In this document: piece by piece, positions 414 to 39,173 of the stretch
Position numbering within the stretch: the stretch's first letter is position 1
How the letters are laid out: each line of letters opens with the position of its first letter
Virus record (IMG/VR): IMGVR_UViG_2671180547_000005
Length of the DNA stretch: 39,501 bases
From: a virus
Lineage: Duplodnaviria > Heunggongvirae > Uroviricota > Caudoviricetes
Strand: one strand, 5' to 3'
Notes under the pieces: generated by a model
The model's input: only the letters and a program-made list of their open reading frames with translations
Databases searched by the model: none
What the model was told of the DNA's origin: nothing
Position numbers and translations under genes: made by a program

Positions 414-935
414 ATGGAACTAAAAAATATAACCCGTTATTATCCTGAAAATATGCCATATGGTAATAATGTTCAGTATTTCCAGAGTGAAGATGGTAAG
501 GATTTCTACGAATCCCTGCCATTATTCACCAAAAAATATAAACTTTGCATAACACCTGACAGCGGCGTTATCTGCTCAATATCACAGGACGCCTCGGCGC
601 TGTATCCTGCGGGGTTTTCTGTGGTTGAGGTCGATGAACTCCCTGAAGGCACGGATATTTCAGGAAACTGGAAGTTTGATAATGGCATAATCTCCCGTAT
701 TCCGGTTAACTACGCAAGAAAACTGGAAGCAATGCGCCAGTCATATCTTAATCAGGCATATGAAAAAATTAATGACTGGAGAACGGAGCTACAACTGGGC
801 ACCATCAGCGATGAAGACAGAGCAGCACTTACCCAATGGATGGCATACATCAGTCAGGTGAAGAAAATGGAACTACCCGCCATTAAAACAGAAGCTGAAT
901 TTAACGCCATTAAATGGCCTGAGCAGCCACAGTAA
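414..935 (+). CDS. Tail fibre assembly chaperone (Tfa / Mu U-like)
   Basis: 173 aa directly downstream of the fibre segment; C-terminus has the W-x-x-Y ... I-x-WP pattern typical of Tfa proteins. Confidence 0.7.
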   Translation: MELKNITRYYPENMPYGNNVQYFQSEDGKDFYESLPLFTKKYKLCITPDSGVICSISQDASALYPAGFSVVEVDELPEGTDISGNWKFDNGIISRIPVNYARKLEAMRQSYLNQAYEKINDWRTELQLGTISDEDRAALTQWMAYISQVKKMELPAIKTEAEFNAIKWPEQPQ

Positions 936-940
936 TAAAG

Positions 941-960
941 AAGGCCGGAAGGCCTTCTGA
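941..960. terminator. Hairpin between convergent tfa and alternative fibre segment
   Basis: Perfect 8-bp stem AGAAGGCC / GGCCTTCT with a 4-nt loop, AU-rich flanks, between two convergent stop codons. Confidence 0.4.
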
Positions 961-966
961 ATATCA

Positions 967-1319
967 TTATATACTTGCAGCCGTCACCCATGCTCCATTT
1001 AACAGATACTGCAACGGCCGGTAATACACGCCGCCGACGTTATCTGCCGTATTCTTACCGACATCCTGTACTTTAATTCCGGTAAGAACATTGCCGCCCC
1101 CCAGATTCAGATCCCAGCTTTCCCATGTTCCGGGCATATGTGCGGTCACCGACCCCAGTCTTATGGCGGTTACTGTTCCTGATGAGATAGTGATATCCTG
1201 CGTCCCGTCAAAGGGAACACCATTAATTGTGTGGGCATTTGCCAGCCTGTTCGCGGCAACGGCGGTGCCGTCCGATGGCAGGGCATTCGCCGCCCTGTTT
1301 ACCGTTTCCCGTAAACCGA
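967..1319 (-). CDS. Alternative tail fibre C-terminal segment (silent here; fused to the constant part after inversion)
   Basis: Minus-strand frame is open from the stop at 1351..1353 down to TAA at 967..969; begins with the same ~23 aa as the plus-strand segment and ends with a different ~95 aa tail. Confidence 0.6.
1250..1319. repeat. Right inverted-repeat copy of the invertible segment
   Basis: Reverse complement matches window 1..70 (69/70). Confidence 0.75.
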
Positions 1320-1331
1320 GGTTTTCAGGAA
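1306..1331. promoter_or_regulatory. gix/hix-like 26-bp recombination site (right copy)
   Basis: TTCCCGTAAACC-GA-GGTTTTCAGGAA: near-palindromic 12-2-12 layout, close to the Mu gix sequence as I recall it, immediately upstream of the invertase gene. Confidence 0.65.
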
Positions 1332-1396
1332 AGCCAGGATTAACTCTGTTTTATTCCTCATGCGACAATTCCGGCTTTTTATAATAAGGAAATCGT

Positions 1397-1969
1397 ATGC
1401 TGATTGGGTATATCAGGGTGTCAACAAATGACCAGAATACGGCGCTACAAAGAAATGCGCTGGAATGTGCAGGATGTGAGCTGTTTTTCGAAGACAGAAT
1501 AAGCGGTAAGACAAGGGAGCGTCCCGGACTTAAACGCGCATTAAAGCGACTCCGGCCAGGGGATACCCTGCTGGTCTGGAAACTGGATCGCCTTGGACGC
1601 AGTATGCAGCACCTTGTCCTTTTAACAGAAGAACTCCGGCAACGCGGCGTTAACTTCCGCAGCATTACGGACAATATTGATACATCCACTCCCATGGGAC
1701 GTTTCTTTTTCCATATAATGGGCGCGCTGGCGGAAATGGAGCGGGAACTCATTATTGAACGTACACGCGCGGGTCTTGCTGCTGCCCGTGCTCAGGGGCG
1801 TCATGGCGGCAGACCTCAGAAACTGACAGAGAAAGAGCGGGAGCAAATCGCCCGTTTGCTGGCTAATGGCGAGTCCCGTAAACAAATCGCACTGATATTT
1901 GATATTGGCCTTTCCACCCTTTATCGTTATTTTCCTGCCTCACCAGCTCCGTCACCAAAAGTACCGTGA
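1397..1969 (+). CDS. gin: Serine DNA invertase, Gin/Hin/Cin/Pin family
   Basis: 190 aa; N-terminal MLIGYIRVSTNDQ with catalytic Ser, resolvase core, C-terminal HTH; adjacent to the gix-like site. Symbol given by analogy to Mu. Confidence 0.9.
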   Translation: MLIGYIRVSTNDQNTALQRNALECAGCELFFEDRISGKTRERPGLKRALKRLRPGDTLLVWKLDRLGRSMQHLVLLTEELRQRGVNFRSITDNIDTSTPMGRFFFHIMGALAEMERELIIERTRAGLAAARAQGRHGGRPQKLTEKEREQIARLLANGESRKQIALIFDIGLSTLYRYFPASPAPSPKVP

Positions 1970-2054
1970 CGCTTTTTTGAATTTCCGCAAAACACATATT
2001 TTTCAGCGGTCGCTATTCTGACTCTGTTTAATTCAGAAACAGGCAGAAAAGACG

Positions 2055-4109
2055 ATGTCAGACTCCAAGTGGAAAATGCTCTCCGCCATGCCCGGAGAGT
2101 TTTCAGTCAAGGTTGCCGGTGGCACGGTGGCATTTATTGAAAGCCCTTTCCGCCCTTCGGGTAATAAAGGGGGGATCACCTTCGCAGACTGCGTGATCCG
2201 CTTCAGCACGAAAGAGCCATTATGGGTAATGCCGGTATCCGGTAATCCCAGTGCAGAAATCACCAGTTCAGGCGTGACTGGCATCATTCCAATCACATCT
2301 GACGTGGCCGGAACGCTCACGCCCTCCGACTGGAATGCACCGGATAACGCCGGGCCTTCCGGTAGCACGAATGGCAGCAGTTCAGAGCCGGAATATTACT
2401 TTGTTGTCATTCTCGCGGGTCAGTCAAATGGCATGGCCTACGGCGAGGGGCTGCCGTTACCGGATTCGTTTGACCGCCCGGACCCACGCATTAAGCAACT
2501 GGCACGCCGCAGTACGGTAACGCCCAACGGTACGTCGTGTACATACAACGACATCATTCCGGCAGACCACTGCCTGCATGATGTTCAGGATATGAGCGGG
2601 ATAAACCACCCGAAAGCTGATCTGGCAAAAGGCCAGTACGGGACTGTCGGTCAGGGGTTGCATATTGCCAAAAAACTGCTTCCCTATATCCCACAGAATG
2701 CCGGGATACTTCTGGTGCCCTGTTGTCGTGGCGGGTCAGCATTCACCACTGGAGCCGACGGCTCATTCAGTGAGGCCAGCGGTGCTTCCGCTGATTCTTC
2801 ACGCTGGGGGGCCGGTAAACCTCTGTATCAGGACCTGGTAAGCCGCACCAAAGTCGCGCTGGCGAAAAACCCGAAAAACAAACTTCTGGCTGTGGTCTGG
2901 ATGCAGGGAGAGGCAGACCTTGCCTCAGGAAGCCAGCAGCATAATAGTTTATTCACGGCCATGGTTCAGCAGTTCAGAACTGACCTGGCTCCGCTTGCTG
3001 CGCAGTGCGTGAGTGGAAATGCCACCACGGTGCCGTGGATTTGCGGTGATACCACGTATTACTGGAAAAACGCTGGCACCGATAAATATGAGGCAGTATA
3101 CGGTGGCTACAAAGGCAAGGAAGCACAGAAAATTTTCTTTGTACCGTTCCTGACGGATGAGAATGGACAGAGCACGCCAACGAATGCTCCGGCGGAAGAC
3201 CCGGATATTGTGGCTGTCGGGTATTACGGTGCAGCATCCCGAACCCAGGGCAGTTTTGTTTCGACACAGCGTGACAGCCATTTCAGCTCATGGGCACGCA
3301 GGGGCGTCATTTCAGACCGTCTGGCCTCAGCTATTATGCTCCATGCAGGGCGCACGGCTGAACTGATGCGTGGGCAGACCGTGACACCACCGGATGAGAA
3401 GCCGTCACCTGATACACCATCAAAACCGTCCACGCCACCCGCAGACACCACGACGATGAGTACGCTATTTGCTTACCGGGCATCTGAGTCTGAAGGACGG
3501 TTGACACCACAGGGTTGGGCTGCCGGAGGTGGCAAGGCTCAAATCGTGGATGATGCCGGAGCCAGCGGGGGTAAGGCAATGAAACTGACCAAGGAAACAG
3601 GAAGAGCCCCCTGGTACCTTGAGCATGATGCTGGTAATGGTGCGGACCTGCTGGGTAAAGGTGGTCTTGTCAGTTGTCGTTTTAAACTCGATGGCGCGCT
3701 TACGGCTAATCAGTACGCACTGGCGCTGTACTGGCCGGTTTCTGCCCTGCCGCAAGGGGTTACTCTGGAAGGAAATGCCGGTCATAACCTGCTGGCATCG
3801 TTCTACGTACAGAGCGATGCCACAGACCTTAACGTGATGTATCACAAAGGAAACACGGCGCAGAACACGAAGCTGGGGTCATTCGGCGCATTTAATAACG
3901 AATGGCATACGCTGGGCTTCCGTTTTGCCGGTAACAACAGTATTGAGGTGACGCCGGTCATTGATGGTAAGGACGGGACACCATTCATGCTGTCGCAGTC
4001 TCCGGTCGGCACGTTTACGGCAGACAAGTTGCGCGTGACCGATATCACTAAAAATGCGACTTACCCGGTACTGATTGACAGTATCGTGGTGGAAGTGAAT
4101 AACGCGTAA
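2055..4109 (+). CDS. NanS-p-like sialate O-acetylesterase (SASA/SGNH domain) with Pro/Thr linker and C-terminal lectin-like domain
   Basis: 684 aa; VVILAGQSNGMAYGEG matches the GQSN motif of the sialate O-acetylesterase family; size and modular layout resemble prophage NanS-p proteins. Confidence 0.6.
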   Translation: MSDSKWKMLSAMPGEFSVKVAGGTVAFIESPFRPSGNKGGITFADCVIRFSTKEPLWVMPVSGNPSAEITSSGVTGIIPITSDVAGTLTPSDWNAPDNAGPSGSTNGSSSEPEYYFVVILAGQSNGMAYGEGLPLPDSFDRPDPRIKQLARRSTVTPNGTSCTYNDIIPADHCLHDVQDMSGINHPKADLAKGQYGTVGQGLHIAKKLLPYIPQNAGILLVPCCRGGSAFTTGADGSFSEASGASADSSRWGAGKPLYQDLVSRTKVALAKNPKNKLLAVVWMQGEADLASGSQQHNSLFTAMVQQFRTDLAPLAAQCVSGNATTVPWICGDTTYYWKNAGTDKYEAVYGGYKGKEAQKIFFVPFLTDENGQSTPTNAPAEDPDIVAVGYYGAASRTQGSFVSTQRDSHFSSWARRGVISDRLASAIMLHAGRTAELMRGQTVTPPDEKPSPDTPSKPSTPPADTTTMSTLFAYRASESEGRLTPQGWAAGGGKAQIVDDAGASGGKAMKLTKETGRAPWYLEHDAGNGADLLGKGGLVSCRFKLDGALTANQYALALYWPVSALPQGVTLEGNAGHNLLASFYVQSDATDLNVMYHKGNTAQNTKLGSFGAFNNEWHTLGFRFAGNNSIEVTPVIDGKDGTPFMLSQSPVGTFTADKLRVTDITKNATYPVLIDSIVVEVNNA

Positions 4110-5400: not shown

Positions 5401-5443
5401 GAGTGATAAAGATATCAACAACAAAGCAGGAGGTTATGCGGCC

Positions 5444-5644
5444 ATGTATCGAAACATACGGTGCCGACATTGTAACAAGCTACTGGCACGAGCCAGCTTC
5501 AGTTATCTGGAAGTTAAATGTCCGCGCTGTAAAACCCTCAATCAAATCACATCTCAGAGCGCCACAGAGCACCCCACATACACAAGGAAATCCTGTCGTG
5601 GGGAACAGAAAGCAAGTTACATCCCGTATCATCAGCACGCCTGA
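5444..5644 (+). CDS. com: Com-like zinc-finger translational activator of mom
   Basis: 66 aa from the internal ATG with an upstream AGGAGG; CxxC ... CPRC zinc-finger pattern as in Mu Com. Confidence 0.7.
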
Positions 5645-6335
5645 ACTTATTCACTATAACGACAATATCGTCGGTTATGGCTCCCGTGAGTTACGGGTTG
5701 AGACAATAAGTTGCTGGCTGGCCCGGCTGGTCGTCGTCAATAAACATTACAGCCATCGTTTCGTAAATAATTCCTACCTTCATCTGGGCATATTTTCAGA
5801 ACGGGAGCTGGTTGGCGTAATGCAATGGGGTTATGCCCTTAATCCAAACAATGGTGCACGCGTCGTAACTGGCACGCAGAACCGCGAATATATGGAGCTT
5901 AACCGGTTATGGCTGCATGACTGTATGCCGAGAAACTCCGAATCAAGGGCAATCAGTTACGCGCTCAAACTAATCAGACAACTTTATCCGCAGGTGCAGT
6001 GGGTTCAGTCGTTTGCAGATGAGCGTTGTGGCTGTCTTGGTGTCGTGTACCAGGCAAGCAATTTTGATTATGTAGGCAGTCATGAAACAACATTCTATGA
6101 ACTTGATGGCGAGTGGTATCACGAGATTTGCAAGAATGCAATCAAACGAGGAGGACAGCGAGGTGAACATCTGCGGGCTAATATCGACAGAGCCAGTGTT
6201 CATAAATTCCGTCAGTTTCGTTACATCCGGTTTCTGGACAAGAGAGCCAGAAAACGCCTTAACACAAAGCTATTCAAAGTCCAGCCTTACCCAAAACCAC
6301 AAACAGTTAAAACTGGTTTGAAAGAGAGTGAATGA
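5598..6335 (+). CDS. mom: Mom-like DNA modification protein
   Basis: Overlaps the 3' end of com in another frame; GTG at 5598 preceded by AAGGAAA; about 245 aa; last gene before the phage end, as in Mu. Start codon inferred. Confidence 0.55.
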
Positions 6336-6379
6336 ACGCTTAAAAACTCATTCTAAAACTCAAAAGAAAAGCGCCGATT

Positions 6380-6463
6380 TAGTATCAAATAAGTTGCGTA
6401 TCGGCGTTTTTCAGCGGTATCAAATGAAATGCAAATCGGTATCAAAAAAATCGCCGCGCTATA
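6380..6463. repeat. Phage right-end (attR-like) cluster of three closely spaced transposase-site repeats
   Basis: AGTATCAAATAAG (6381), CGGTATCAAATGA (6416), CGGTATCAAAAAAA (6437); inferred terminus about 6456..6463 (...GCGCTATA). Confidence 0.6.
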
Positions 6464-6465
6464 GA

Positions 6466-6504
6466 CAGCCTAAGCGGCTGCTGACCTCCCTGACCATGCT
6501 GTAA
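6466..6504 (+). pseudogene. Detached 3' end of IS66 tnpB (QPKRLLTSLTML-stop)
   Basis: Reads in frame as the continuation of the tnpB that ends at 38853 on the other phage flank (…LLEGIDWR + QPKRLLTSLTML). Confidence 0.5.
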
Positions 6505-6548
6505 ATCTCTTTATCCTGGTTGTCACAGAATAAGCCCGGTAAAATACG

Positions 6549-6853
6549 NNNNNNNNNNNNNNNNNNNNNNNNNNNNNNNNNNNNNNNNNNNNNNNNNNNN
6601 NNNNNNNNNNNNNNNNNNNNNNNNNNNNNNNNNNNNNNNNNNNNNNNNNNNNNNNNNNNNNNNNNNNNNNNNNNNNNNNNNNNNNNNNNNNNNNNNNNNN
6701 NNNNNNNNNNNNNNNNNNNNNNNNNNNNNNNNNNNNNNNNNNNNNNNNNNNNNNNNNNNNNNNNNNNNNNNNNNNNNNNNNNNNNNNNNNNNNNNNNNNN
6801 NNNNNNNNNNNNNNNNNNNNNNNNNNNNNNNNNNNNNNNNNNNNNNNNNNNNN
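6549..6853. other. Assembly gap (305 N)
   Basis: Run of n. Confidence 1.
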
Positions 6854-7221
6854 ACGTCAGCGGGACCAAGACTGTTTTTTGTGGCAAGCGTCCCCAGACC
6901 AAGATAACCACGGGCCAGACGCTGGGCCTCCGCACCGGCATCAGCAATTTCTTTCAGGTTATTTTTCCGGGAAAAGGCATTCGCAGCGATAATGGCTTTA
7001 ATGGACAGCGTAAGCTGGTTTAACTGCGCCTTATCCGGCTGAATACTGGCTTCAGCCAGAATATTCAGCAGTTCGGCCTGGAGAATATTCAGCCAGTCCT
7101 GACCAATCCAGCTGATACCTTTTTGTCCGTCACCTTCGGTAAACCAGGTGGTGGTATTACTCTGCGCCGGTGCCAGCGCAGGCATATTCGCCACGCCGGA
7201 ATTATTATCAACATGAAACAT
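6854..7221 (-). CDS. Tail fibre protein, N-terminal constant part (truncated by the gap)
   Basis: Minus ORF starting at 7221 runs into the N-gap; sits after the gp48-like gene in Mu order. Confidence 0.6.
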
Positions 7222-7781: not shown

Positions 7782-8854
7782 GTGATTTCTCCTACCGTCA
7801 GCAGCTCACTGTCTCCCGCCTGAACTGACGTCAGCGGACTGCGCACTTCAAAATCCTCCAGATTTTTCACCCCTGCCACCGCCCGCCAGAAAGACGACGG
7901 CAGAACCAGACCGCCGGGCCGGGATTCGTTATACAACAGGTCGGTCAGCGCCTGTTTTACGGCCGCCTGATTCTCCGGTGTTTTCGGGATGATCCTGATG
8001 CTGAAGGGCACCGGCTTATTGGTCAGTTTAAACACGGTCACCGTCGGCCCCAGAGGCTGTCCGACAGGCTGGCCGGTCGCCGGATCATCATGACTGCGGA
8101 TATAATCCGCCACCCGCTGAACATCACCGTCACCGGGGAAAATATCCGGGTTATTATCCTGAACAAACGTTACCCCCACGCTGCCCGCCTGCGGCCATTC
8201 CGGGCGGCACCATGCCCGCGTCACGCCCGGCACTTCACGCGCCCAGCGTTCAAAATCATACTGCGTGCCGCCGGACGGTGGATTCTGCACCCGGAAAACC
8301 AGACGGGAAAGCAGCTCCGGCACGGTTTCCACATCCGCACCACCGGTGATCCCCGTTCCGGTCACCGTGGCCGTCTGGTTGATCCCCGCCTGCGGTGTGA
8401 TAAATGTCAGTTTTGTCCCTGCCGGGGCATTCCCCGCACGACCGGCACTTTCGGCTTCCACACTGACATTCAGCGTACCGGCCTTACCGGTCAGGGAGGT
8501 GGTGATACGGTAAACCACGCCATCACTTCGCTGGAGAAGCACACCTTCCTTGATCCCCGCATCCGTGGTCAGCATCAGCTGAACCGGCCCGTCCCCCCGA
8601 GAGGCAGGCTTACGCATGACGCCCCAGAATGCACAGTGTTTCAGCAGTTCGGCTTCATCGGCTTCGGTCGGGATGATCTGACGCGCAATCCAGGCCAGAT
8701 GCTCATGCTCCTGAGCAGATAACCCTGCCTGAGCGTAAGCAATGGCATTCAGGGTGGTTTCATTCACACCCGGCTGCGAGCCGGGCAGGCGCTGGCTGAT
8801 ATCCTGCTGTGTCTGCGTGATTAACTGTGCCAGCGGTAAAGGCTGATAAGGCAT
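7772..8854 (-). CDS. Baseplate J-like protein (Mu gp47)
   Basis: 360 aa; position and size. Confidence 0.7.
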   Translation of the reverse strand: MPYQPLPLAQLITQTQQDISQRLPGSQPGVNETTLNAIAYAQAGLSAQEHEHLAWIARQIIPTEADEAELLKHCAFWGVMRKPASRGDGPVQLMLTTDAGIKEGVLLQRSDGVVYRITTSLTGKAGTLNVSVEAESAGRAGNAPAGTKLTFITPQAGINQTATVTGTGITGGADVETVPELLSRLVFRVQNPPSGGTQYDFERWAREVPGVTRAWCRPEWPQAGSVGVTFVQDNNPDIFPGDGDVQRVADYIRSHDDPATGQPVGQPLGPTVTVFKLTNKPVPFSIRIIPKTPENQAAVKQALTDLLYNESRPGGLVLPSSFWRAVAGVKNLEDFEVRSPLTSVQAGDSELLTVGEITWL

Positions 8855-28867: not shown

Positions 28868-29290
28868 TCAGAAAAGCCGTGGCTGCGTGCGTTCCTGATG
28901 CAGGCGACGCTGGTTGCGGATAACGGAGTAAATCTGCGTCTCTGACATCTGGTAGTGGCGGCGCAGGGTTTCAATTTTTTCGCCCTGGCTCCAGCGGGAA
29001 AAAATTTCATTATTGCGCAGTTCGGTGAAAAGGGATTCACCGACCGGGAGATAATAACCACGCCCGCCCATGTACCCGGCCTGTGCGGCTGCAACCTTAC
29101 GGGCAAGCATTCCCGCCTGAGCAGGTTCAATCCCCTGACGGTGCAGTTCAGCACTGATCACATCAACCAGGTCCCGCAGCGTGCCGGGCCAGTTCTTTTT
29201 CAGCTCATCATCAGGAATATCATCCAGACGGTCAATCAGCGCGTGCAGCTGTTCGCTGTCACCAAACATGCTCATCTGTGTTTCAGCCAT
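28868..29290 (-). CDS. mor: Mor/C-family transcriptional activator
   Basis: 140 aa with a C-terminal HTH; positioned upstream of the lysis and late genes. Confidence 0.65.
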   Translation of the reverse strand: MAETQMSMFGDSEQLHALIDRLDDIPDDELKKNWPGTLRDLVDVISAELHRQGIEPAQAGMLARKVAAAQAGYMGGRGYYLPVGESLFTELRNNEIFSRWSQGEKIETLRRHYQMSETQIYSVIRNQRRLHQERTQPRLF

Positions 29291-29360
29291 ACCCGCCTCC
29301 GGTCATCATTACACAGGGCAAGTTTAAAATAAAAATCCCGCGCTGTGGCGGGATTTGGGG

Positions 29361-29873
29361 TTAACGGGGGAATGATTTTTCATACAGCCTGCAAACACGC
29401 TCATAACTCATCACTGCACGTTCCGACATATCCAGGGCTGCCAGCATTTTGCGGCGGTGCCAGCGTTTGAGACGCTCCAGCACATCAGAGGCCAGCGCGG
29501 GTTGTTGCTCCAGCCACTGCCAGTTAGCCACACCTTCGCCGTCGTTCTGCGCGGCCGTCTGCGATTTCACCCAGCGGTTAAGGGCCGTTTCCCCGCCATC
29601 AGAGATAAATCCCTGCCGGTGCATCACTTTCCAGATGGCGCGAATTTTGGCGGTCACCGTACCCGGTTTTAAGGCCCGGTTAACCGGCTTCTGACGCACT
29701 TTAAAACCGCGTTTTTTGAAAACATCCAGCACGCGGGATAACTCACCGGGTGACATATCACGGCAACTGGATTTGCCGGTGGCTGCCAGCAGCGCGGATG
29801 TATAGGTATCATGGTCAAGCTGTAGATCGCGTTTTGCGACATGTATTAAGGTAATCAGGGAAGCGCGATTCAT
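29361..29873 (-). CDS. GemA-like protein (Mu gp16 family)
   Basis: 170 aa immediately upstream of mor. Confidence 0.5.
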   Translation of the reverse strand: MNRASLITLIHVAKRDLQLDHDTYTSALLAATGKSSCRDMSPGELSRVLDVFKKRGFKVRQKPVNRALKPGTVTAKIRAIWKVMHRQGFISDGGETALNRWVKSQTAAQNDGEGVANWQWLEQQPALASDVLERLKRWHRRKMLAALDMSERAVMSYERVCRLYEKSFPR

Positions 29874-29943
29874 TATCGTGGCTCCATAAAAAATGGGCGG
29901 TGTTACCGCACCGCCATGTCAATTAACATAAAAGGAAAAATCT

Positions 29944-30183
29944 ATGTCAGATATAAAAAATGCACTTGATGTTGCCGCATTCACAATGGCTGGAAATCTT
30001 ATGGTAACCCTGTTCGATAAGGGGCTGATTTCCCGTGAGGAGGCAATACATATTATCAATCTCGCTCAAAAAAACTCTACCCCGGAAAATGCAGAAGATA
30101 TCCAGGATGGCTCATATATTAATACCGACTGGCATTTCGACAATCTCCGGGCCTGTATGGGGATTACCGCTGAAAAAGATTAA
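29944..30183 (+). CDS. Hypothetical protein, opposite strand to the early operon (moron)
   Basis: 79 aa; AAGGA RBS; AT-rich; 3' end overlaps the convergent gene by 20 nt. Confidence 0.4.
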   Translation: MSDIKNALDVAAFTMAGNLMVTLFDKGLISREEAIHIINLAQKNSTPENAEDIQDGSYINTDWHFDNLRACMGITAEKD

Positions 30184-30451
30184 AAATTTTTGCATAATGT
30201 TCAGATGTAAGAATTGCTGAACCATCAACACCGAGCCTACGGCGAACGTATTCCTCGCGGGCTATTTTATTATCCAGAGATACAGCATCCTTAATCAGGT
30301 TAATCTCCCGCTCCATTATCAAAAGGGCTTCTCTGGCTGCAAGATTTTCTTTTATCGCATATTCGATAATGTCCCGCATACGTTCAAGCATGCCGATTTT
30401 AGCCAGTTCTTCGTCGATAGATTTAGGCGCAAATTTGATTTCTTTTTCCAT
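30164..30451 (-). CDS. Hypothetical coiled-coil protein in the AT-rich moron
   Basis: Start taken at ATG giving MEKEIKF with an upstream GAGGA; about 95 aa. Confidence 0.45.
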   Translation of the reverse strand: MEKEIKFAPKSIDEELAKIGMLERMRDIIEYAIKENLAAREALLIMEREINLIKDAVSLDNKIAREEYVRRRLGVDGSAILTSEHYAKIFNLFQR

Positions 30452-30452
30452 A

Positions 30453-30596
30453 TTATTCATCCTCACAATTTATACATGCAGTGTCGTCGCCCATATCGCA
30501 GTGGTTACATTTTATCTCACCACAATGTGGGCACTCTTTCAGATACTCCGGGTCCTCATTTCCACAGGTGGGACATTCAACAATTTGCTCATCCAT
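30453..30596 (-). CDS. Small zinc-ribbon protein (four CxxC pairs)
   Basis: Unlisted 47-aa ORF MDEQIVECPTCGNEDPEYLKECPHCGEIKCNHCDMGDDTACINCEDE. Confidence 0.45.
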   Translation of the reverse strand: MDEQIVECPTCGNEDPEYLKECPHCGEIKCNHCDMGDDTACINCEDE

Positions 30597-30921
30597 TATG
30601 TATCCCCTGTAATTCCGGCAAGGCCGAAAGATGGCACCAGTGCGTCACCTGTCCGTCCTCATCTTCAAGGCAGGCTCCGGTTTCTTCATCAATAAAAAAG
30701 CCTTCATACCCCATATGGCCGATGCGCAGTTCCTGTTGGTCACCATACTGAACAATCAGCACGACAGCCTCCATATCAGGCGGAAATGCGTCATCCAGTG
30801 AATGCCAGGGATAACCGCGCAAATCCCCGAAATAAACGCCGGTCAGCGTTCCGCCACAGAGCGGCATTCCGGCGGCACACACAAGAGGTTCATCTGATTC
30901 AACAAATAAGGTCGTTATCAT
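30589..30921 (-). CDS. Hypothetical early protein
   Basis: 110 aa; operon position. Confidence 0.4.
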   Translation of the reverse strand: MITTLFVESDEPLVCAAGMPLCGGTLTGVYFGDLRGYPWHSLDDAFPPDMEAVVLIVQYGDQQELRIGHMGYEGFFIDEETGACLEDEDGQVTHWCHLSALPELQGIHNG

Positions 30922-32666: not shown

Positions 32667-33197
32667 TTATTTATTCAGTCCGGCGTCCTGTTCAAAAGGC
32701 TCGACATAAAAACTTTCAGCGCCTTTATTCACCTTGATACCGGCAATGCCTTTCACAGCATCCGGCTCCGCCAGGACGGCTTCCTTGTTCACTTCCTCTT
32801 TCGTGCGGATGAAACGCTCAAGCCCCATACGGCGCAGCATTTCAATCACACCTTCCACATCACGGCTGACGCTGCATGATGGCGTTCCCAGCCGCCATGA
32901 CACCGTTCCGGTGGTCAGATTGGCTGTTTTGGTTTTGCCGCCGTTCGTCAGCTCATCACGGTTGGTTTTGCACCAGTCCTGAATCCCTTTAAAAAGCACT
33001 TTGATTTGCTTTTTAAGATTTTCAATCTGCGGCGTATAACGGGCGGTGATTTCTGCCACTTCGTCATTCATCGCCGTTTCCAGGCGCAGCGCCTCTCGCT
33101 GAATATCTCCCAGGGTGCGGATATCACGGCTGACTTCTTCCCGGGTCTGCGGTGCCGCCTCGGCTGCGGCCTTTAATTTTGTAACGCGTTTAGCCAT
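32667..33197 (-). CDS. gam: Gam-like host-nuclease inhibitor (DNA-end binding)
   Basis: 176 aa; recognisably similar to Mu Gam (RLETAMNDEVAEI, DELTNGGKTKTANLTTG, FIRTKEEVNKEA). Confidence 0.8.
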   Translation of the reverse strand: MAKRVTKLKAAAEAAPQTREEVSRDIRTLGDIQREALRLETAMNDEVAEITARYTPQIENLKKQIKVLFKGIQDWCKTNRDELTNGGKTKTANLTTGTVSWRLGTPSCSVSRDVEGVIEMLRRMGLERFIRTKEEVNKEAVLAEPDAVKGIAGIKVNKGAESFYVEPFEQDAGLNK

Positions 33198-38070: not shown

Positions 38071-38616
38071 ATGAACAAGCAAACAACAACATCTCTTTCT
38101 TTTCCTGGTGGTAGAAAAGAAAGCATTGCTGAGCGTCTGAAAAGGCTGATTGGCTCCCGCAGCGTCAGAGCTGCAGCAAGAGATTGGGGGCTTTCATTTT
38201 CAACACTAAACAATTATCTGTCTCGTGGCACTGAGCCATCCTTAAGTGTCGCCCTTCAGATTGCGTCTATCGAAGGAGTAAGTGTTGAGTGGCTATGTGG
38301 ATTCAGTGATGCATCACAAGTGAATCGGTGTGAGATCAAGGAAAATCAAGATGAAAGCAAGAAGATAATTATGACGATTATCAGCGCACTTGATGAAAAA
38401 GACTTAGAGCAGCTATCGAAAAATTTGGTTCTGAATGGAGCCAAGTACTTAGCTCGGTTGTTAGAGCCTGAAAATCAAGATCTAATCCGCTTAGAAGGAA
38501 GGAAAAGAATAGCTGCATTACAGCTTGAAGGTATGTCTGACGAACGCGTCAGAGAGATTTTGGAAGAAACTGAGAGAAGTCGCAAATCTAACGCGGTAGA
38601 ACCAAAAGCGGGTTAA
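38071..38616 (+). CDS. Phage repressor, XRE/CI-type HTH
   Basis: 181 aa with an N-terminal HTH; divergent from ner at the phage left end. Confidence 0.7.
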   Translation: MNKQTTTSLSFPGGRKESIAERLKRLIGSRSVRAAARDWGLSFSTLNNYLSRGTEPSLSVALQIASIEGVSVEWLCGFSDASQVNRCEIKENQDESKKIIMTIISALDEKDLEQLSKNLVLNGAKYLARLLEPENQDLIRLEGRKRIAALQLEGMSDERVREILEETERSRKSNAVEPKAG

Positions 38617-38689: not shown

Positions 38690-38862
38690 AGTATCAAATG
38701 AGTTGCCGATTTTATAATAAATGACTAATTATTGCACAATCGGTATCAAATAGACCTTATCCGCACATCTAGCCATCACCTGTTTTATTTCAGTATCTTA
38801 CAGGTGATTTCACCTCCTTTCACTAAACCCCTTGTCGGTATCAAATGATTCACCTGGTTATA
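38690..38862. repeat. Phage left-end (attL-like) cluster of three spaced transposase-site repeats
   Basis: CAGTATCAAATGAG (38690), CGGTATCAAATAG (38742), CGGTATCAAATGATTCA (38835); inferred terminus at 38862. Confidence 0.6.
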
Positions 38863-39173
38863 TGTCGCCAGTCGATACCTTCCAGCAGCATCGCCAGCTG
38901 CGCCTGTGTAAGGAACACTTTGCCATCACGGGCTGACGGCCAGGCGAAGCGCCCACGCTCCAGCCGTTTGGTCAGGAGGCACAGTCCGTCACTGGTGGAC
39001 CACAGCAGTTTAACCTGACTGCCGCTGCGGCCCCGGAAAATGAAAACATGGCCGGACATGGGATCGTCTTTCAGCGCCGTCTGTACTTTCGCAGCCAGGC
39101 CGTTGAAGCCATTTCTCATATCGGTGATACCGGCAACCAGCCAAATTTTGATCCCGGAAGGTAACGGGATCAT
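38853..39173 (-). CDS. tnpB: IS66-family TnpB (orf2), 3' end interrupted at the phage junction
   Basis: 107 aa with the characteristic IWLVAGITDMR ... LLEGIDWR; the stop codon coincides with the first bases of the phage end. Confidence 0.75.

Follow-up and report, generated by a model that had tools for sequence, protein, structure and literature searches.

The DNA analysed here (the window: a single stretch of 39,501 nucleotides, IMG/VR virus record IMGVR_UViG_2671180547_000005) carries an Escherichia coli Mu-like prophage whose early and late genes lie on the minus strand, and it has, next to gemA, a segment poor in guanine and cytosine (GC) in which a gene of 79 amino acids (aa) runs against the early operon. 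By homology and gene order this segment is a module of Mu type that closes the early region, made up of homologs of Mu gp13 and gp14, a reverse-oriented gp15-family gene, a hairpin and gemA, and we consider it reasonably probable that the gp15-family gene acts as an accessory unit whose expression belongs to the lysogenic state. What was noticed is real but for the most part ordinary, its modest novelty being the definition of the gp15 family, its coding strand and two conserved hairpins.

A sequence-only reading of the same DNA had described the segment as a moron inside the early operon, and the features that it described are borne out. The plus-strand gene lies at 29944-30183, where its 3' end overlaps the final 20 nucleotides (nt) of a minus-strand 95-aa gene (30164-30183), and it alone runs convergent to the early operon, all the neighbouring early genes from Gam to Mor being on the minus strand. 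An open reading frame (ORF) of 47 aa with four CxxC pairs, absent from the gene list, is present at 30453-30596. The terminator-like hairpin on the minus strand is also there, but at 29896-29915, a few bases off the 29886-29912 first proposed. The lower GC content holds on comparison: 29893-30605 has 41.8%, while the window as a whole has 53.3% and gemA 54.6%; among stretches of the same size 5.5% are as low, none of them between ~7,000 and 29,700, and the equivalent module of Mu is likewise GC-poor (45-47%, against 55% for its gemA).

Genes of the module and their Mu counterparts

The 47-aa ORF, which has no annotation in RefSeq (PGAP), is wedged on the minus strand between an upstream 110-aa gene and the 95-aa gene; its start overlaps the stop of the former (ATGGATGA) and its stop falls 1 nt ahead of the ATG of the latter. 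The predicted product is a double zinc ribbon with the cysteine pairs C8xxC11, C22xxC25, C30xxC33 and C41xxC44, and by similarity it is a homolog of Mu gp13 (formerly E14): BLASTP against gp13 gives an E-value of 3e-26 with all eight cysteines aligned over 41 aa, the match to phrog_5584 (E 3e-26) places it in the same family, and tblastn against phage genomes finds residues 7-47 to be 88% identical in Mu, D108, SfMu and Yersinia Mu-like phages. The ratio of non-synonymous to synonymous polymorphism (pN/pS) in a set of six diverged E. coli copies is 0.18, which indicates purifying selection. Mu gp13 has 19 N-terminal residues that the window homolog lacks; this shortening, and the presence of a 110-aa phrog_6925 gene instead of gp12 before the homolog, stem from a mosaic junction at the 5' end of the homolog. 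At locus L038 (3010-3705, minus strand) the positions of gp12 and gp13 are taken by a 231-aa protein that, judged by its size, probably corresponds to phrog_6418, the last 41 positions of which match the zinc ribbon; if so, the mini-protein can also exist as a C-terminal domain.

The 95-aa gene (30164-30451, minus strand) encodes a helical protein. Its longest frame spans 30164-30466, and the start was set at the ATG at 30451 (MEKEI) by RefSeq and the PHROG match. The protein is 49% identical to Mu gp14 over 94 of 95 aa (E 1e-29) and matches phrog_6075 with an E-value of 6e-44, which identifies the gene, on similarity, as the homolog of Mu gp14 (formerly E15). A word-indexed search with the protein returned only close E. 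coli relatives; the gp14 motif N..AR[DE]..[VI]RR[ER]LG is kept in 13 loci, and pN/pS among the six copies is 0.23, again a sign of purifying selection. Since the zinc-ribbon and 95-aa homologs stand in the same order as in Mu, where the two genes adjoin each other shortly ahead of gemA, they are ordinary early-operon genes, translationally coupled, and not moron cargo, and by homology they are members of the semi-essential early region of Mu. The functions of the ORFs in that region are largely uncharacterised (PMC3325207, PMC3820752), and our literature search for functional data on Mu gp13, gp14 or gp15 found none.

The 79-aa gene starts with ATG, 7 nt downstream of an AAGGA Shine-Dalgarno sequence. 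Pairwise BLASTP of its product against Mu gp15 was negative, with a pairwise identity of only ~20%, and Smith-Waterman alignment gave a score of 45, starting at residue 8 of both proteins, that was equalled in 5 of 5000 shuffles. The relationship emerges from profiles: an exhaustive HMMER search with a family profile gathered 28 clusters, nearly all of 60-119 aa, that bridge the subtypes, and hhalign aligned a profile of the 79-aa type (10 sequences) with one of the Mu gp15 type (6 sequences) over 58 columns at a probability of 97.4% (E 1.4e-11). The gene is thereby placed in the Mu gp15 family as a divergent member. The family has no Pfam entry, and the 79-aa subtype corresponds to phrog_32893. 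Its common core reads [FY]D[IV]A[AG]F.[LM]AGN.[LM]..L..KG[VIL][IL][ST]..[ED]A..I[IL], to which the 79-aa subtype adds the C-terminal motif DWH[LF]DNL.A. Two candidates were set aside, namely a match of the 79-aa profile in L023 in the contig scan, which was a false positive to a Pirellula DUF-type protein, and P0038, which was borderline (E 6e-4) in an unrelated context in L034 and is not counted.

Selection on the six reading frames favours the plus-strand gene, whose frame has a pN/pS of 0.29 against 0.55-1.56 for the other five; the gene is therefore taken as real and protein-coding. The open frame and the N-terminal and DWHLDNL motifs also persist in relatives down to ~25% identity, so that the comparative evidence points to a translated gene and not to an antisense artefact. 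This bears on a conflict in the annotation of Mu itself, where at 7896-8162 (L011 and L018) RefSeq NC_000929 has the reverse gene Mup15 of 88 aa, whereas the updated GenBank record AF083977 has a forward 55-aa 'Mu_54' (7960-8127) and no gp15; the D108 record has no annotation at this site despite a reverse ORF of 119 aa that belongs to the gp15 family. The low pN/pS of the plus frame argues against the forward 'Mu_54' in place of gp15.

The AlphaFold2 model of the 79-aa protein (alignment of 24 sequences) has a predicted local distance difference test score of 76.5, a predicted template-modelling score of 0.64 and helices at residues 2-25, 31-44 and 61-71. The protein is acidic (isoelectric point 4.5), and it has no stretch of 19 aa with a Kyte-Doolittle mean above 1.6; the highest such mean is 1.27, compared with 0.78 for the 95-aa protein, and neither has a transmembrane-like segment. 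Database alleles of the gene (P0005 and P0007-P0010) carry frameshifts in the C-terminal half at differing positions, some of them at the A7 run at 30068-30074; in these alleles 43-47 residues at the N-terminus are intact, and the frame then continues to a total of 88-92 aa. The idea of a programmed frameshift or phase-variation site at the A7 run was dropped as unsupported, because the frameshifts sit at several positions and mostly in draft assemblies.

The arrangement of these genes recurs in related phages. In the RefSeq record of Mu, Mup15 follows gp14 directly on the opposite strand and overlaps it by 62 nt; SfMu_16 is annotated in the same way, and D108 and Mu_3F6 have a reverse ORF of 119 aa there. 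Beyond these four phages we sampled one IMG/VR contig and ten Logan, NCBI or JGI loci, and wherever context could be retrieved the gp15-family gene is convergent with a gp14 homolog of ~90-120 aa and abuts or overlaps it. The order gp14, reverse gp15, gemA is found in L032, L033 and L035-L043, most with 70-72 nt to the gemA start (L035-L042, measured from the start of the reverse gene). In the distant phages L044-L046 other early genes lie between the gp15-like gene and gemA, and gp14 is still the partner. The C-terminal subtypes of gp14 co-occur with the subtypes of gp15. The overlap of the two genes varies from 4 to 98 nt across loci, and the overlap itself is therefore not the conserved feature.

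Hairpins and the divergent control region

The first of the two hairpins stands 50 nt past the stop codon of the 79-aa gene, on the plus strand, where RNA folding predicts an imperfect hairpin (30234-30263) followed by ATTTTATTAT, the whole element spanning 30234-30273. The element falls within the codons that specify AREEYVRRRLG in the gp14 homolog, and its Mu counterpart is annotated as a TransTermHP terminator at 7839-7873. A stem of 10-13 base pairs (bp) with a T-rich tail is present in 16 of 17 distinct sequences. When a 12-pair structure was scored on the alignment of the 17 sequences, 88.7% of cells were paired and five of the 12 pairs had compensatory changes on both sides; none of 500 shuffles reached the observed values, and slid controls paired in 38-53%. 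In D108 the stem is kept though the amino acids differ (AHNNIVCRELG). Comparative folding thus makes this hairpin a probable intrinsic terminator of the reverse gene.

The second hairpin, on the minus strand directly before the Shine-Dalgarno sequence of gemA, has the form GGCGGTG-N6-CACCGCC (29896-29915) and is followed by a T6 tail at 29889-29894 (CATTTTTT). Its stem of 7 bp, six of them GC pairs, encloses a loop of 6 nt; a terminator scan classes it as terminator-like, and its predicted fold energy is -13.2 kcal/mol (z = -2.3). The GGCGGTG/CACCGCC stem is found at the equal position in Mu, SfMu, D108, vB_YpM_3 and L032-L043, and hairpins with differing stems take that place in L037, L003, L045 and L046; a T-rich stretch follows all of them. 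Since the T-tail is variable, the strength of termination probably varies as well, and we regard the hairpin as a conserved element and a putative terminator or attenuator. In the Mu record it falls inside an annotated 'semi-early promoter' (8151-8217). In the window a further terminator-like hairpin (29333-29356) is the only element between gemA and mor, and an Rfam scan of 29200-30800 returned nothing relevant.

The two divergent starts, gemA at 29873 and the 79-aa gene at 29944, are separated by a control region that, together with the first 24 nt of gemA, spans 29850-29943. These 94 bp contain no variable column among the six copies, compared with 70 of 801 columns overall. At L044 (~1590-1650) and at L045 and L046 (~2440-2500) an inverted repeat of 8-10 bp (CCTGTTAG...CTAACAGG), which is absent from the window, encloses the Shine-Dalgarno sequence of the gp15-like gene and could be an operator or a stem that sequesters translation.

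Mosaic exchange beside gemA

Comparison with sister E. coli Mu-like prophages delimits an exchangeable Mu-type module at 29893-30605, which comprises the zinc-ribbon core, gp14, gp15 and the hairpin. The blastn breakpoints against L003 and L004, which have the same gemA, mor and SANT/Myb flanks, fall at 29892/29893 and 30605/30606, and the DNA homologous to Mu covers 30578-30231 and 29915-29758. Only ~14-20 of 233 matching E. coli records carry the module; several complete E. coli chromosomes carry DNA identical to the window. We found no direct or inverted repeats flanking 29893-30605 that would mark a mobile insertion. The slot is filled in L003 and L004 by phrog_6158 and phrog_1988 genes and a reverse-oriented DUF2513 gene, and in most E. 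coli Mu-like prophages by an all-minus set of 116, 110, 65 and 98 aa that is coupled straight to gemA, with no hairpin and no reverse gene. From these comparisons, recombination in E. coli Mu-like prophages swaps several alternative segments at this site, and the module is one of them.

The DUF2513 gene (L003 and L004, 3089-3499, plus strand, 136 aa) overlaps the truncated 3' end of the phrog_1988 gene by 39 nt and has its own GC hairpins on both sides. Exchange also reaches into the genes: L047-L049 (1501-2020) have the backbone and the N-terminal half of gp14 as in the window, together with a gp14 C-terminal third and a reverse gene of the Mu gp15 type (92 aa), which places a recombination breakpoint inside gp14. 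In vB_YpM_3 ~220 bp including gp15 are lost relative to Mu and SfMu, while gp14, the hairpin and gemA are retained; because vB_YpM_3 is a plaque-forming phage (PMC10434027), the gene is dispensable for lytic growth. A second slot for reverse genes lies between gemA and mor, occupied by plus-strand genes in L006 (632-1054), L007 (631-972), L039 (1450-1878), L040 (1481-1885) and L041/L042 (1552-1887); these encode 111-142 aa, are mutually unrelated, and none matches PADLOC.

Pfam matches identify the surrounding prophage genes, namely GemA (29361-29873), Mor (28868-29290) and Gam (32667-33197), all on the minus strand, a Gp11_C protein and the A and B transposition proteins elsewhere in the window, and a repressor-like helix-turn-helix gene at 38071-38616 on the plus strand, the strand of the 79-aa gene. 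Just beyond the latter, at or past the left prophage end, is an ORF resembling IS66 Orf2 (TnpB_IS66; 38850-39173, minus strand). Plus-strand genes also occur within 414-4109, encoding a tail-fibre-assembly protein (414-935), a Gin-like resolvase (1397-1969) and a 684-aa SASA esterase/DUF6645 protein (2055-4109); they may mark tail-fibre DNA that is invertible or exchanged, or else belong to a neighbouring element at the right prophage end. A very AT-rich stretch at 5900-6750, with a GC content of 25-30%, contains a 232-aa minus-strand ORF (6523-7221) that directly follows a Gp48-like gene and has no Pfam or PADLOC match; beside it is a Mom-family ORF on the plus strand (5403-6335), opposite to the late genes.

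Interpretation and comparison with known systems

The 79-aa gene is bracketed by two opposed hairpin-plus-T-run elements, the one embedded in gp14 facing in the direction of gp15 and the one next to gemA in the direction of the early operon. On the reading that we favour, gp15 would form a transcription unit of its own with the orientation of the repressor gene, transcribed in the lysogen while the early promoter Pe is repressed, and its transcript would end at the hairpin within gp14. After induction, head-on early transcription would silence it, and the hairpin before gemA would attenuate early transcripts ahead of a separately promoted gemA-mor. The protein, which is predicted to be small, acidic, soluble and three-helical with a SHOCT-like hairpin, would act by binding other proteins or by oligomerising, and it would be a dispensable accessory factor, with a function in the prophage state or in tuning the early-to-middle switch, and neither an enzyme nor a toxin. 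Activity of gem in lysogens has been reported (PMC3325207, PMC3820752).

Several observations weigh against this proposal. Matches of the gp15 family to SHOCT (PF20612 / PF22746) are weak and occur in three plus two of 24 members (best E 0.0014-0.046); every one of them is below the Pfam curated thresholds and the 79-aa window protein has none. Fold searches with this protein gave generic helical matches only, and a PDB sequence-profile search gave only non-significant ones, such as T4 MotA at E 0.13. The frameshifted alleles may reflect relaxed constraint on the C-terminal helix, decay or assembly error, and the covariation of the hairpin within gp14 has to be read with the caveat that the sequences are related and under coding constraint. 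A consensus promoter scan detected no convincing sigma-70 promoter for either the reverse gene or gemA; the sole plus-strand match (29783-29812, 9 of 12 positions) lies inside gemA, and the number of matches is not above that in shuffled sequence. The clean T6 tail of the gemA-proximal hairpin is confined to the window, the tail in Mu being CCCCTTTCC, so that termination there may be weak or absent in Mu, and early transcription has been described as running through to C (PMC3820752).

The sequence-only reading had taken the segment for a horizontally acquired moron and had suggested a toxin-antitoxin, exclusion or anti-defence function. A moron of this kind, with the reverse gene acting alone or with the 95-aa gene in toxin-antitoxin, superinfection exclusion, defence or anti-defence, would fit the low GC, the sharp mosaic borders and the restriction to a minority of E. 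coli Mu-like prophages, as well as the orientation that the reverse gene shares with the repressor gene, the DUF2513 reverse gene in the same slot, the further reverse genes between gemA and mor in relatives, and the dispensability of the gene. Part of the idea stands, in that a GC-poor, sharply bordered recombinational module is present in few records and its reverse gene resembles an independent, dispensable unit: it has its own Shine-Dalgarno sequence, it is followed 50 nt past its stop by a conserved hairpin and T-run, its own terminator by prediction, and it is present in some phages and cleanly absent from close relatives, namely vB_YpM_3 and most E. coli Mu-like prophages. The zinc-ribbon and 95-aa genes, on the other hand, are ordinary early genes, translationally coupled in the early operon, and all three genes are syntenic with Mu gp13-gp15 and widespread in Mu-like phages; as Mu, SfMu, D108 and many other Mu-like phages carry gp13, gp14, reverse gp15 and gemA in this way, the notion of a foreign insert largely falls. 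The proposed functions found no backing either, though gp15 by itself may conceivably serve defence or exclusion. No PADLOC-DB v2 model matched the four window proteins at E <= 1, nor did any match the alternative reverse genes from related loci; with the cassette proteins no Pfam or NCBIfam match passed the cut-off, and PHROGs assigned these proteins to 'unknown function' families only. A type II toxin-antitoxin pair was rejected, the genes being convergent and not co-directional or co-transcribed and having no recognised domain in PADLOC, Pfam or NCBIfam; so was a type I locus, there being no hydrophobic, toxin-like segment in the 79-aa or 95-aa protein and both partners being conserved proteins. 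The segment being a standard Mu gp13-gp15 module, we therefore do not class it as a candidate defence or toxin-antitoxin island, and we consider the moron explanation unlikely.

Explanations that start from the convergent arrangement itself also have to be weighed. Overlapping convergent transcripts at gp14/gp15 are plausible from the gene layout, and gp15 might be an antagonist, partner or regulator of gp14, acting through the protein or through the antisense 3' overlap, with gp14 off in the lysogen and on after induction. A gp15-like gene is always found beside and convergent with a gp14 homolog, even in L044-L046, the predicted gp15 transcript would cover ~50-80 nt of gp14 in antisense before it ends at the embedded hairpin, and the gp14 C-terminal subtypes go with gp15 subtypes; however, this co-variation may reflect mere overlap and linkage, the length of the overlap is not conserved, and the viable phage vB_YpM_3 keeps gp14 without gp15, which leaves a cognate pair a doubtful proposition. 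The role might instead be exerted in cis, convergent gp15 transcription and the gemA-proximal hairpin forming a barrier to early read-through into gemA-mor that times the early-to-middle switch, with the protein secondary. The opposed hairpins, the invariant 94-bp control region with its fixed spacing of 70-72 nt to gemA, the separate 'semi-early' promoter of the Mu record and the low-level Pe transcription reported in lysogens (PMC3820752) would suit such a barrier, but the 79-aa frame is under purifying selection, motifs needless for a purely cis function are kept in relatives of ~25% identity, and most E. coli Mu-like prophages do without hairpin and reverse gene, the 98-aa gene being coupled straight to gemA; we find this quite unlikely. 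That the 79-aa ORF is spurious, the real information lying on the early strand as 'Mu_54', is suggested by the GenBank record of Mu and the blank in that of D108. No forward ORF of at least 60 aa crosses 29874-30163 of the window, however, and the lowest pN/pS, the persistence of frame and motifs in distant relatives, the consistent Shine-Dalgarno sequence and the terminator-like hairpin downstream speak for the reverse gene, which makes a spurious ORF extremely improbable.

We also offer, as a speculation to which we give little credence, that the gp14/gp15 pair is a two-state switch of transposable phages, in which the lysogen would produce a gp15 transcript antisense to the 3' end of gp14 and a SHOCT-like protein with a host or phage partner, and head-on transcription from Pe would flip the locus. 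Exclusion or immunity such as the unassigned Mu 'cim' phenotype, or antagonism of gp14, would be possible outcomes. If this were true, selection would have acted jointly on an RNA structure, the terminator hairpin, on one strand and on the protein motif that the gp14 codons specify on the other.

Returning to the terminal module, the result is mainly a correction of the view that the segment is a foreign insert. The data favour the reverse gp15 of RefSeq over the forward 'Mu_54' and define a small two-motif family that is missing from Pfam, and the hairpins inside gp14 and before gemA are testable landmarks for the end of the Mu early operon. The neighbourhood of gemA in enterobacterial Mu-like prophages is mosaic, with reverse genes that come and go, and may suit a search for accessory prophage functions.

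The closest known counterpart is Mu gp15 (NP_050619.1; SfMu_16), which likewise is flanked by gp14 and gemA, runs against the early operon with a 3' overlap on gp14, is followed by a hairpin and T-run within gp14, has a GC hairpin ahead of gemA, and shares the N-terminal core [FY]D[IV]A[AG][FY]..[AS]..L...L..K[GA].I[ST]..E[EA] with the window protein. It differs in size (88 aa against 79 aa) and in its overlap with gp14 (62 nt against 20 nt), whereas the C-terminal helix motif DWH[FL]DNL, which marks a separate subtype, and the canonical T6 tail belong to the window. Mu gp13 and gp14 agree with the window genes in order, in translational coupling and in their place before gp15 and gemA, as well as in the eight cysteines of gp13 and the AREEY[VI]RRRLG of gp14. 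SHOCT is a short helical-hairpin oligomerisation domain, and the gp15-family pattern L..L...G.I[ST]..E[AF]...I[IL], predicted to form a helix-turn-helix hairpin, resembles it without amounting to membership.

Two further systems invite comparison. Phage morons, in the sense established for lambdoid phages, are independent transcription units that have been inserted between genes within a phage operon. The reverse gene of the window is like them in its lower GC than its neighbours, in its own Shine-Dalgarno sequence and predicted terminator, in its patchy presence and in a slot that is swapped with a DUF2513 gene; unlike them, gp15 is an ancestral gene of the Mu lineage that keeps its link with gp14, not a sporadic recent insertion, and the reverse-gene unit does not include the adjoining zinc-ribbon and 95-aa genes. 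In the Pseudomonas Mu-like phage Fc02, opposite-strand overlapping genes lie by the region controlling lysis and lysogeny, one strand being expressed during lysogeny and the other once the phage is induced, and exclusion has been demonstrated (PMC9936078). The two cases are alike in that a transposable phage carries overlapping genes on opposite strands, but the Fc02 genes stand beside the repressor and ner and not beside gemA, and their proteins are unrelated to those described here.

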